64,000 nucleotides of DNA from Coriobacteriales bacterium. GTDB lineage: Bacteria > Actinomycetota > Coriobacteriia > Coriobacteriales > QAMH01. The translations under genes were made by a program, and so were the position numbers. Below the pieces are notes generated by a model that made no database searches, was not told the origin of the DNA, and was given only the letters and a program-made list of their open reading frames with translations. Positions 26,011-29,000 of the stretch are shown here, one piece after another (position 1 is the first letter of the stretch; each line of letters begins with the position of its first letter). The stretch is from positions 6,282-70,281 of the forward strand of contig JBJEHN010000072.1 of assembly GCA_051876105.1 (NCBI GenBank). The letters run 5' to 3'.

Positions 26011-29000
26011 TTACTCGGCGTCCTCGGCGGATGCCTCGTCCTCGGCGCTCGTCATGCCGAAGCCTGCGCCCAGCAGCTCCTCGAGCATGGCGTCGTCGTC
26101 AGCAGAGCGCGGGTGCACAACGCTGCCGCCGATCATGTCGTCGGGGTCTGCGGAGTAGGACTTGGGCACCTCCGCGCCGGAGAACATGGCGTCCTCGGGC
26201 GAGAAGAGCATCTCGAGCAGCTGGGCTGCGTCGGGCTCGTCTGCGGAGGCCTGATCCTCGAGCAGGTAGAGCAGGTCGCGCTCCTCGAGGCCGGCCTTGA
26301 GCTCCTCGATGGCCTTCACGCCGATGCCCTCGATGCGGAACAGCTCGTCCTCGGTCTTGCCCACGAGGTCGCCCACCGTCTCGATGCCGGCCTCGGAGAA
26401 CTTGTTGGCCCAGCGCTGGGACACGCCCAGGTCGTCGAAGAGGTAGAGCTTTGCAACCTCGGGGGACAGCACGCGGCCGCCGGCGCCCACAAAGCCGCCC
26501 ATGTAGCCCATGCCGGGAACGCCCAGGTAGTCCTCGCCGTTGTACTGGTACTCGGACGGCTGGGGCAGCAGGGACTCGGTCTCGCGCAGCTCTTCCGGAG
26601 CCCAGTCGGGCAGCTGGTCCATGACGCTGCCGGTGCGGTCGATCTTCTCGCCCTTGTAGGTGAGCTGAAGGTCGCGGTAGCGCTTGAGGCCGGTGCCGGC
26701 CGGGATGGGCTTGCCGATGATGACGTTCTCCTTGAGGCCGACGAGGTCGTCGGTCTTGCCCTCGATGGCCGCGTCCGTGAGGACCTTGGTGGTCTCCTGG
26801 AACGAAGCCGCAGAGAGGAAGGAGTCCGTGGCCAGGGAGGCCTTGGTGATGCCCAGGATGAGCGGCGTGGCGGTGGGGGCGTTGCCACCCTCCATCACGA
26901 TGCGCTGGGCAACGTCCTCGAACTCGTAGCGGTTGACCTGGGCGCCGGGCAGGTACTCGGAGTCGCCCGGATCCAGAACCGTCATCTTGCGCAGCATCTG
27001 GCGTGCGATGACCTCGATGTGCTTGTCATTGATGTCGACGCCCTGGGAGGTGTAGACATCCTGGACCTGCTCCACGATGTAGCGCAGGGTGGTGTTGACG
27101 TCCGTGAGGCGCAGGAGGTCGTGCGGGTTGACGGAGCCGCGGGTGAGCTGCTGGCCAACCTCGACCTGGGCCATGTCCGCAACACCGGGCATGAGCTGCA
27201 CGCGGGTGGAGGTGGTGTACTCCACGACCTCGCCGTCCTCGTTGTGGATGGTGAGGATGCGGGAGTCCTTGTCGCCGCTGATCTGCAGGGTGCCGCTGAT
27301 CTCTGCCAGCACGGCCTCGCCCTTGGGCTTGCGGGCCTCGAAGAGCTCGGTGACGCGGGGCAGGCCGCCGGTGATGTCGCCGCCGGCGACGCCGCCGGTG
27401 TGGAAGGTGCGCATGGTGAGCTGGGTGCCGGGCTCGCCGATGGACTGGGCCGCGATGATGCCCACCGCGGTGCCCAGGTTGACGGGCCTGGAGGCAGCCA
27501 GGTCGTAGCCGTAGCACTTCTGGCAGACGCCCTGGTGGCTGTGGCAGGTCATAACCGTGCGGATCTTGAGGGCCTCGATGCCGGCCTTCTCGAACTCGGC
27601 CAGCGTGGAGGCGCTGGTGATGTACTCGCCCGCCTCGAGCAGGACCTCGCCGCTGTTGGGGTCGGCGACGTCTGCGGCCAGGGCGCGGCCCACCAGGTTG
27701 AGGTCGATCTCGCCCTTGGCGTTGAGCAGCTTGTACTCGATGCCGTCGCTGGTGCCGCAATCCTCCTCGTGGACGATGACGTCCTGGGCCACGTCGACGA
27801 GGCGGCGGGTCAGGTAGCCGGAGTCAGCGGTACGCAGGGCGGTGTCTGCCAGGCCCTTGCGTGCGCCGTGGGTCGAGACGAAGTACTCCAGTACGGTCAA
27901 GCCCTCGCGGAAGTTGGCCTTGATGGGGTGGTCGATGGTCTCGCCGCGGGGGTCGGCCATGAGGCCGCGCATGCCTGCGAGCTGGCGGATCTGCTTGATG
28001 TTTCCTCGTGCACCGGAGAACGCCATCATGTAGATGGGGTTGAACTTGTCGAAGTTCTCCGCCATGGCGTCGCCGACGGCCTCGTTGGCCTCGTTCCACA
28101 CTGCGATGACCTGGCGCTTGCGCTCCTCGGAAGAGGAGAAGCCCATCTCGTACTCCTCCTGGATCTCTGCGACGCGCTCGTCCGCCTCGGCAAGGATCTG
28201 GGCCTTCTGGGGCGGGATGGTCGCGTCGTAGACGGAGACGGTGACGCCTGCGCGGGTCGCATAGTGGAAGCCGGTGGACTTCAGGCCGTCCAGGATGCGG
28301 CAGAGCTCGGGGGTGGGGTACAGGTTGGCGCAGTCCTCCACCAGGCGCGAGATCTCCTTCTTGTTCATGCCGTAGTTGATGAAGTCGTGCTCCTTCGGCA
28401 GGATGGAGTTGAAGATGATGCGGCCGATGGTGGTCTCGATGCGCTCGCCGGCCTTGTACTCGGTGAGCTCGTCGTAAGAGCTCAGGACGCGGGTGTCGTA
28501 CTTCAGGCGCACCTGGATCTTGGCCTGCAGGTCAACATCCGCACGGGCGTCGTAGGCGTTCTGGGCGTCCTTGAAGTCCATGAACACGCGGCCCTCGCCC
28601 GGGAAGTTGTCGCGGGCGGCGGTGAGGTAGTACAGGCCGATGATCATGTCCTGGGTGGGGACGGCCAGCGGCTTGCCGTGTGCAGGGGACTTGACGTTGT
28701 TGGCAGAGAGCATCAGCACGCGGGCCTCGGCCTGGGCCTCGGCGCCCAGGGGCACATGCACGGCCATCTGGTCGCCGTCGAAGTCGGCGTTGAAGGCGGT
28801 GCAGACCAGCGGGTGCAGGCGGATGGCCTTGCCCTCGACGAGGACCGGCTCGAAGGCCTGGATGCCCAGGCGGTGCAGGGTCGGTGCGCGGTTGAGCAGC
28901 ACAGGATGGTCCGTGATGACCTCTTCCAGGACGTCCCACACCACGTATGCGCCGCGGTCGACCATGCGCTTGGCAGCCTTGATGTTGGCAGCATGCTCAA

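Follow-up and report, generated by a model that had tools for sequence, protein, structure and literature searches.

The window analysed here, a 64,000-nucleotide stretch of DNA from a gut-type Coriobacteriales bacterium (contig JBJEHN010000072.1), carries on its minus strand the gene rpoC (26011..30390, stop codon 26011-26013), which codes for the beta-prime subunit of RNA polymerase. According to the open reading frame (ORF) and its translation, the protein has 1459 amino acids, and this length includes a C-terminal extension with a domain that resembles the alpha subunit's C-terminal domain (alpha-CTD). In Pfam, residues 8-1187 match Rpb1 domains 1-5, and the family PF03118 is found in addition. 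The conserved beta-prime core (Rpb1_1 to Rpb1_5) comprises residues 1-1239 (26674..30390), of which the model TIGR02386 (rpoC) covers residues 12-1239. The core is followed by a Gly/Tyr-rich linker of ~70 residues (residues 1240-1309, 26464..26673), by the alpha-CTD-like double helix-hairpin-helix (HhH) domain of 66 residues (residues 1310-1375, 26266..26463; Pfam match at residues 1319-1370, nt 26281-26436), and finally by a C-terminal tail of 84 residues which is acidic by composition (residues 1376-1459, 26014..26265), all on the minus strand. The peptide which the initial annotation had compared with alpha-CTD was recovered letter by letter as L1317-L1373 (nt 26272-26442, minus strand) within this single ORF. 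Directly 3′ of the stop codon, folding predicts a GC-rich hairpin followed by UUUU (25953..25984, minus strand), probably an intrinsic terminator. Its stem has 12 bp with a folding energy of −35.5 kcal/mol (z −4.8), and none of 200 shuffled sequences folds as well. An automated terminator scan made no call at the 3′ end of rpoC, as the T-run comprises four and not five residues.

The homology to the alpha-CTD, which the initial annotation had seen by eye, is borne out by profile searches, by pairwise sequence comparison and by the predicted structure. PF03118 (RNA_pol_A_CTD) matches the whole protein with 36.8 bits (E 3e-9) and the last 229 amino acids with 39.5 bits, both above the gathering score (23.8); HHH_5 matches the same residues less strongly. 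When the protein was compared by BLASTP with residues 254-312 of Escherichia coli RpoA, whose numbering agrees with PDB chain 10ma_G, 59 residues aligned ungapped with 39% identity and a pairwise E of 2e-10. A phmmer search of the PDB with the last 229 amino acids yielded 54 matches, nearly all of them alpha subunits or isolated alpha-CTDs, the best being the protein of Bacillus subtilis (3ihq_B, E 1e-7).

The structure prediction which the initial annotation had suggested was run with AlphaFold2 on the C-terminal fragment, using an alignment of 61 sequences, and gives a confident alpha-CTD fold. The predicted local distance difference test score (pLDDT) reaches 93-96 over residues 1311-1380, and the four predicted helices (1325-1333, 1339-1342, 1347-1351, and 1358-1370) are those expected for an alpha-CTD. 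In a Foldseek comparison of the predicted model with the PDB the alpha-CTDs came out on top, with a root mean square deviation (rmsd) of 1.3-1.6 Å and a target template modelling (TM) score of 0.83-0.86; the best match is 1z3e_B (1.6 Å over 65 residues, TM 0.83), and 7vpd_S and 9dvt_A reach a TM score of 0.86. As is typical of the alpha-CTD family, the domain appears to be tethered: between the end of the core at residue 1239 and the domain lies the poorly conserved linker of 70 residues, which is modelled for the most part with low confidence (pLDDT mostly 49-71). The domain follows Rpb1 domains 1-5 and not the alpha subunit families PF01000 and PF01193, and several NCBIfam models of RpoA match only this region of beta-prime (residues 1318-1383), far under their cut-offs. 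We conclude that the resemblance to alpha-CTD in sequence and predicted fold is far past chance and that the subunit encoded here is a beta-prime with a predicted alpha-CTD-type domain and not an alpha subunit.

The extension belongs to an intact gene. The identical protein of 1459 amino acids is deposited as NCBI MGN0038425.1 ('MAG: Coriobacteriales bacterium', MAG being a metagenome-assembled genome) and falls into a 65-member cluster at 90%, with 1459-aa members from many independent assemblies. In each of 80 related loci the frame is open through the domain up to a stop codon within the locus, and the ORF mostly has a length of 1458-1529 amino acids where the whole rpoC lies within the locus. 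A frameshifted or misassembled 3′ end, which the initial annotation had named as a possible refutation, is ruled out by the identical NCBI protein, by the intact frame in all 80 loci and by the hairpin after the stop codon. A stand-alone alpha-CTD gene appeared to lie downstream of rpoC in one environmental locus (L083), where a separate gene of 168 amino acids had been called. This candidate was rejected as the product of an indel or an assembly frameshift, as the frame runs without a break from the core to the CTD, and the same long-read contig has a broken fusA as well.

To describe the distribution, a GTDB-based collection with one genome per species was scanned with motifs taken from the extension, and the matches were confirmed by tblastn. 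At least 592 species genomes encode the extension, all of them Coriobacteriia after a check of the bins. The best 80 matches come from Eggerthellaceae, Coriobacteriaceae, Atopobiaceae-type and unclassified Coriobacteriales or Coriobacteriia, with Adlercreutzia, Eggerthella, Gordonibacter, Senegalimassilia, Raoultibacter, Denitrobacterium, Cryptobacterium, and Ellagibacter among the genera; the closest among the matches listed is a Coriobacteriales MAG (L001) with 97% identity. A wider distribution was suggested by bins named Oscillibacter, Ruthenibacterium, Bacteroidaceae, and Eubacterium (L011, L014, L023, L033). We rejected them as probably mislabelled or contaminated bins of one project, since their beta-prime cores are 71-78% identical to that of the window, and named Coriobacteriia reach 78-79%. 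Among the 150 matches listed from a HMMER search with the domain in 1.84 billion representatives there is no beta-prime of another phylum. Judged from these genomes, the extension is a fixed and strongly conserved feature of the class Coriobacteriia and not of the Actinomycetota in general.

We expressed conservation as the mean frequency of the top residue across 81 Coriobacteriia sequences. It amounts to 0.85 for the last 195 residues of the core, drops to its lowest value in the linker (0.67) and reaches 0.89 in the alpha-CTD-like domain; the tail as a whole has 0.74 and its first motif (see below) 0.91. Thus, constraint on the domain and on parts of the tail is at least as strong as on the catalytic core. 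Within the linker, model and alignment both point to a short conserved motif (residues 1260-1278, 26557..26613, minus strand) with a conservation of 0.80. A short helix is predicted in it at fragment residues 36-44, the block 31-40 has a mean pLDDT of 82, and L38, L45, P46, and W51 (fragment numbering) are nearly invariant in the 61-sequence alignment.

The alpha-CTD grips DNA via the N-terminus of helix 1 (R265 and N268 in E. coli) and via a loop and the start of helix 4 (G296 and K298). Of the '265 determinant' (R265, N268, C269, G296, K298, S299), four of six positions are kept in the beta-prime copy: R1326, N1329, and G1357, equivalent to R265, N268, and G296, are invariant in the 61 sequences, and K1359, equivalent to K298, is conserved to at least 90%. 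Changed are C269, which corresponds to K1330, S299, which corresponds to A1360, and the sigma contact E261, which corresponds to G1322. The neighbouring D258 and D259 have invariant equivalents in D1319 and D1320. The most invariant blocks of the domain are VSQRWANKF and GIGxKA; an invariant Trp stands directly after the key arginine R1326, and the second hairpin reads GIG, the canonical HhH signature.

The initial annotation had spoken of a second copy of the alpha-CTD, and at the level of the class the copy on beta-prime is indeed additional and not relocated. Neither in the 64-kb window nor in the 80 rpoC loci did tblastn with the RpoA sequences of E. coli and Mycobacterium tuberculosis detect an alpha N-terminal domain, the beta-prime CTD being the sole match. 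Look-ups of the exact proteins from genes at the edges of the window did not reach an rpoA gene: RNase D was found only in contigs of 3.4 kb and GAPDH in none. The gene was reached in another way, by a search with the ribosomal protein L16 of L083 which led to Coriobacteriia proteins on long contigs. These L16-linked loci end in an rpoA of 312-314 amino acids with PF01193, PF01000, and PF03118. In L090 both genes are found on one contig, an rpoC of 1414 amino acids with PF03118 and an rpoA of 314 amino acids with PF01193, PF01000, and PF03118. A scan of metagenomes with the N-terminus of Coriobacteriia RpoA yielded 63 complete rpoA genes, all with a length of 309-316 amino acids. The nine that were inspected all end in a canonical CTD (…LDLSVRSYNCLKR…NIRNFGAKSIEEVKDKL…), and all 63 also match the beta-prime domain in BLASTP with E up to 1e-3; one of them lies on the contig of L089. 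Three RpoA candidates of 327-339 amino acids (P0223, P0265, P0176) were discarded, as they carry two to three alpha-CTD repeats and have no detectable alpha N-terminal domain. Since alpha retains its CTD in the Coriobacteriia, the core enzyme should carry three alpha-CTD-type modules. The beta-prime domain is 31-45% identical to the alpha-CTDs of the Coriobacteriia, which is no higher than its identity to the alpha-CTD of Bacillus. With such values a recent duplication of the lineage's own alpha-CTD could be rejected, and the beta-prime copy appears to be an old paralogue that evolves separately.

The tail was described in the initial annotation as a disordered-looking acidic stretch of 79 residues. 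Its acidity is confirmed, with 21 Asp/Glu and 2 Lys/Arg in the last 79 residues (23 and 2 in the 84 residues of the complete tail), but it is not featureless, as two conserved helices are predicted in it. No Pfam family matches the tail at E up to 1. Across the 81 sequences its length varies from 83 to 169 amino acids and its net charge from −18 to −34, and it is always acidic. The first motif (26191..26226, minus strand; consensus SQLLDMVFSPDD) is predicted to form an amphipathic helix at fragment residues 158-165. The region around it (residues 1386-1399) has the above-mentioned conservation of 0.91, higher than the core, and in the 61-sequence alignment F166 is invariant and Q160, L161, M164, S167, P168, and D169 are conserved to at least 90% (fragment numbering). 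The second motif (26056..26097, minus strand; consensus LEELDALLG..GFG) is a predicted helix at fragment residues 202-211; its region (residues 1430-1443) has a conservation of 0.81, and L206, L209, and L210 (fragment numbering) are conserved to at least 90%. The beta subunit has an acidic tail as well. Its gene rpoB (30394..33891, minus strand; 1165 amino acids with the Pfam Rpb2 domains) lies immediately upstream of rpoC, and the translated tail comprises residues 1100-1165 (30397-30594, minus strand) and ends in …EEEE. An acidic beta tail of 61-203 amino acids with a net charge of −8 to −57 is present in all 62 related loci in which the region is readable, and several of these tails contain a DALDLL-type motif which resembles the second motif of the beta-prime tail.

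The order of these elements is not the same in all lineages. Environmental MAGs labelled as Coriobacteriia have beta-prime cores which are 59-72% identical to that of the window over the aligned stretches, and their rpoC stands in the classical context rplJL-rpoBC-rpsLG-fusA. Most of these forms have the shared linker motif, then an acidic segment (…VSAFTGVTFDPNAE…) and then the alpha-CTD-like domain at the extreme C-terminus without a tail. Examples with the domain in the last position are P0225, L083 (7560-8504), and L090 (3-2291), which match PF03118 with 35-39 bits (38.8 for L083 and 35.1 for L090). The linker motif is also found in the environmental lineages L083, L089, and L090. The motif FDPNAE in the acidic segment of this sister lineage resembles the motif FSPDD in the tail of the gut lineage. 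In L089 (1-1144; JGI 3300027051, Ga0209269_1000001, 1.59 Mb) the linker motif and the acidic segment with FDPNAE are both preserved in a beta-prime of 1422 amino acids, whose C-terminus bears two DUF5763 repeats rich in Cys (C…C…YCGVHAK; 30.5 bits, cut-off 26.3) in place of the alpha-CTD-like domain. As linker and acidic segment end in DUF5763 repeats in this lineage, the tether seems to carry an exchangeable nucleic-acid-binding head.

The module is also found outside of RNA polymerase. The protein P0182 (1090 amino acids, L171 6001-9273) contains the beta-prime tail motif twice, a domain that is 62% identical to the beta-prime CTD and a match to sigma70 region 4. Its gene is the last one of a dnd-like cluster with a PAPS reductase, DUF4007, a BrxC/PglY-type ATPase, and a cysteine-desulfurase-like protein, and the module seems to be reused here in a context of DNA modification or defence. 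The domain search also ranked several proteins with multiple alpha-CTD-like copies above true RpoA: P0121, with 11 tandem copies in 806 amino acids, and the SNF2/ResIII helicases P0174, P0206, and P0210, with three to four copies at their C-termini.

What could be the function of the domain? The blocks VSQRWANKF and GIGxKA are the equivalents of the elements with which the alpha-CTD grips DNA, and as they are the most invariant blocks of the domain, the beta-prime module most likely binds DNA. The module would hang from the C-terminus of beta-prime, beside omega. In the 2001 work of Minakhin et al., omega is said to wrap the C-terminal tail of beta-prime, and omega fusions reportedly activate transcription from upstream sites, as in the bacterial two-hybrid system of Dove and Hochschild. 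Since proteins fused to omega can from that point reach factors bound upstream of promoters, a third contact near the upstream promoter DNA is to be expected. We suggest that the module gives the enzyme a third tethered contact, either with upstream promoter DNA or with regulators that occupy it, a reading based on sequence to which we give a probability of about one half. Such a contact would aid the recruitment of RNA polymerase or the stability of the open complex, and the acidic tails of beta-prime and beta would probably tune it. The tail of beta-prime could fold back on the basic DNA-binding face and thereby be auto-inhibitory, or it could be a mimic of nucleic acid or a peptide for docking of partners. 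The common models of promoter recognition assume that upstream DNA and class I activators are read by no tethered module but the two alpha-CTDs. With a third module, a new anchoring point and acidic tails on both large subunits, the polymerase of a class that includes the medically relevant gut genera Eggerthella, Gordonibacter, Adlercreutzia, and Senegalimassilia would differ from these models, and promoter architecture, activator geometry, and tools for heterologous expression may deviate from the paradigms of E. coli, Bacillus, and Mycobacterium.

Going further, it might be proposed that the polymerase of the Coriobacteriia has evolved a modular 'CTD' on its largest subunit, with a conserved tether and an interchangeable head (HhH or DUF5763) which is gated by acidic LDxLL-type helix motifs on both tails, so that the third contact to promoter DNA or regulators would be auto-regulated. 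We put forward this extended version only tentatively and regard it as possible but doubtful. If true, it would be a contact which no studied bacterial polymerase is known to have, and it could possibly serve class-specific control of transcription in gut species such as Eggerthella and Collinsella.

Several observations weigh against the proposed third promoter contact. With 15 Asp/Glu and 8 Lys/Arg the domain is net acidic; the alpha-CTD of E. coli seems to be net acidic as well according to a count by eye. In the '265 determinant' two of six positions are altered, with K in place of C269 and A in place of S299, and the equivalent of E261 is a glycine. A scan of the 64-kb window, which has a GC content of 67%, was uninformative, as it yielded just four AT-rich tracts and nothing that clearly resembled UP elements. 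The sister lineage has the domain without a following tail. As the predicted tail helices have a pLDDT of only 50-69, the model does not support a fold-back of the tail on the domain, and such an auto-inhibition is conjectural. The rpoA gene of the genome from which the window stems lies outside the available sequence, so that the count of alpha-CTDs applies to the class and not to this genome. We know of no experiment on, or structure of, any Coriobacteriia RNA polymerase. Finally, the alpha-CTD serves for the docking of proteins just as much as for the binding of DNA, and the conserved residues can therefore not separate these roles.

This last point leads to the alternative that the beta-prime CTD is chiefly a platform for the docking of proteins, that is, a target of activators or regulators such as sigma region 4, NusA-like or nucleoid proteins, with the tail motifs as docking peptides. 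Class I activators, Spx and NusA classically target the alpha-CTD. Complexes with Spx and CAP are among the best PDB matches of the domain, its invariant DDL with the equivalents of D258 and D259 lies in the region that the E. coli alpha-CTD uses against sigma region 4, and its net acidic charge would also suit this role. In addition, the tail motifs are conserved in the fashion of docking peptides, and the motif recurs beside a beta-prime-CTD-like domain in the unrelated protein P0182. Nevertheless, the strongest invariance is found at the DNA-contact elements R1326, N1329, and GIGxKA, and the equivalent of E261 is lost. We regard a role chiefly in protein docking as possible but doubtful.

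A further alternative places the module after initiation. It would then bind downstream or exiting nucleic acid independently of sequence, either duplex DNA ahead of or behind the polymerase or nascent RNA, and act in processivity, pausing, recycling or coupling, and the tails would be nucleic-acid mimics comparable to delta. The GIG hairpin is typical of proteins that bind the backbone regardless of sequence, which is in line with the HHH_5 match; polyanionic tails are present on both large subunits throughout the class, and in one lineage zinc-finger-like repeats take the place of the terminal module. The C-terminus of beta-prime also corresponds in position to the site near the RNA exit where the linker of the Rpb1 CTD leaves RNA polymerase II (Pol II). 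However, the closest homologues of the domain are the alpha-CTDs, which are known for their role at promoters, and the analogy to delta is one of composition only. We consider a function after initiation unlikely. That the extension is a neutral or structural appendage (for solubility or assembly) or an artefact of annotation or assembly, without a regulatory role, is very improbable and, from conservation, close to refuted: some gene callers do split the region off, as with the 168-aa gene in L083, but the split there stems from an assembly frameshift, all 80 loci have an intact ORF, the domain is conserved beyond the adjacent core, and the extension is kept by at least 592 species and followed by a terminator-like hairpin after the stop codon.

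Concerning the surroundings of the gene, rpoBC of the window lies outside the classical context rplJL-rpoBC-rpsLG which is kept in the environmental Coriobacteriia L083, L089, and L090. Upstream of rpoBC there is a small ORF resembling a metallophosphoesterase (33892-34800) and downstream an ORF resembling methionyl-tRNA synthetase (24335-26010), both identified by eye. The most AT-rich stretch of the window (45269-45314) contains inverted repeats of the type ACACAA…TTGTGT. It is located just upstream of an ORF of 777 amino acids (42894-45227, minus strand) which by eye codes for an anaerobic ribonucleotide reductase, and it is possibly an NrdR-type operator.

The long form of beta-prime is already a curated database family, as the NCBIfam model NF011498 (PRK14906; a beta-prime equivalog with 1459 positions) matches the protein from end to end, with 2628.3 bits (cut-off 1437) over model positions 1-1454; on its own, the extension reaches 252.6 bits at positions 1232-1454. 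This model serves for naming only and makes no statement on function. The CDD entry PRK14906 is presumably titled 'beta-prime/alpha domain fusion protein', and source annotations call fragments 'alpha C-terminal domain-containing protein'. No paper on a fusion of beta-prime and alpha-CTD was found, including in a 2024 survey of the domain architectures of beta and beta-prime; subscription journals were mostly outside this search, so that an older description may exist. In sum, a known regulatory domain has moved onto a different polymerase subunit in a whole class, which is recorded in databases. Previously unnoted are the conserved tail motifs, the acidic tails on both large subunits and the exchangeable head. 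The domain is small and looks soluble, it would offer structural biology a natural case of an alpha-CTD working from another anchoring point, and genetic tools have been reported for E. lenta.

The closest known relative of the module is the alpha-CTD itself. Both share the family PF03118, the fold as far as it is predicted (rmsd 1.3-1.6 Å), a long flexible tether and the equivalents of R265, N268, G296, and K298. In contrast to the alpha-CTDs, the Coriobacteriia copy is present once per enzyme and would leave the polymerase beside omega, from beta-prime and not from the alpha dimer. It also differs by the replacements C269 to K, S299 to A, and E261 to G, by the Trp after the key arginine, and by the GIG in the second hairpin, and it is followed by an acidic segment, which precedes the domain in the sister lineage. 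With regard to the tails, the delta subunit (RpoE) of the Firmicutes is the obvious comparison. Delta places a polyanionic tail on RNA polymerase; this tail competes with nucleic acids, and both promoter selectivity and recycling are sharpened by it. In the Coriobacteriia such tails are found on both beta and beta-prime. No relation in sequence to delta was detected, the beta-prime tail matching no Pfam family; unlike delta, the Coriobacteriia tails are covalently linked to the two catalytic subunits and have conserved helix motifs with hydrophobic residues. The CTD of Pol II Rpb1 is an analogue in position only, being a flexible C-terminal appendage of the homologous largest subunit which exits beside the omega homologue Rpb6 and acts as a tethered platform for interactions. 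The appendage of the Coriobacteriia has no heptad repeats and no homology to it, and appears instead to consist of a folded HhH domain and an acidic tail. Other carriers of PF03118 such as P0121, P0174, P0206, P0210, and P0182 show that the domain is a mobile module, and none of them is a catalytic subunit of RNA polymerase. Among the proteins compared, it is only the beta-prime of the Coriobacteriia that places this module on a catalytic subunit of the polymerase.

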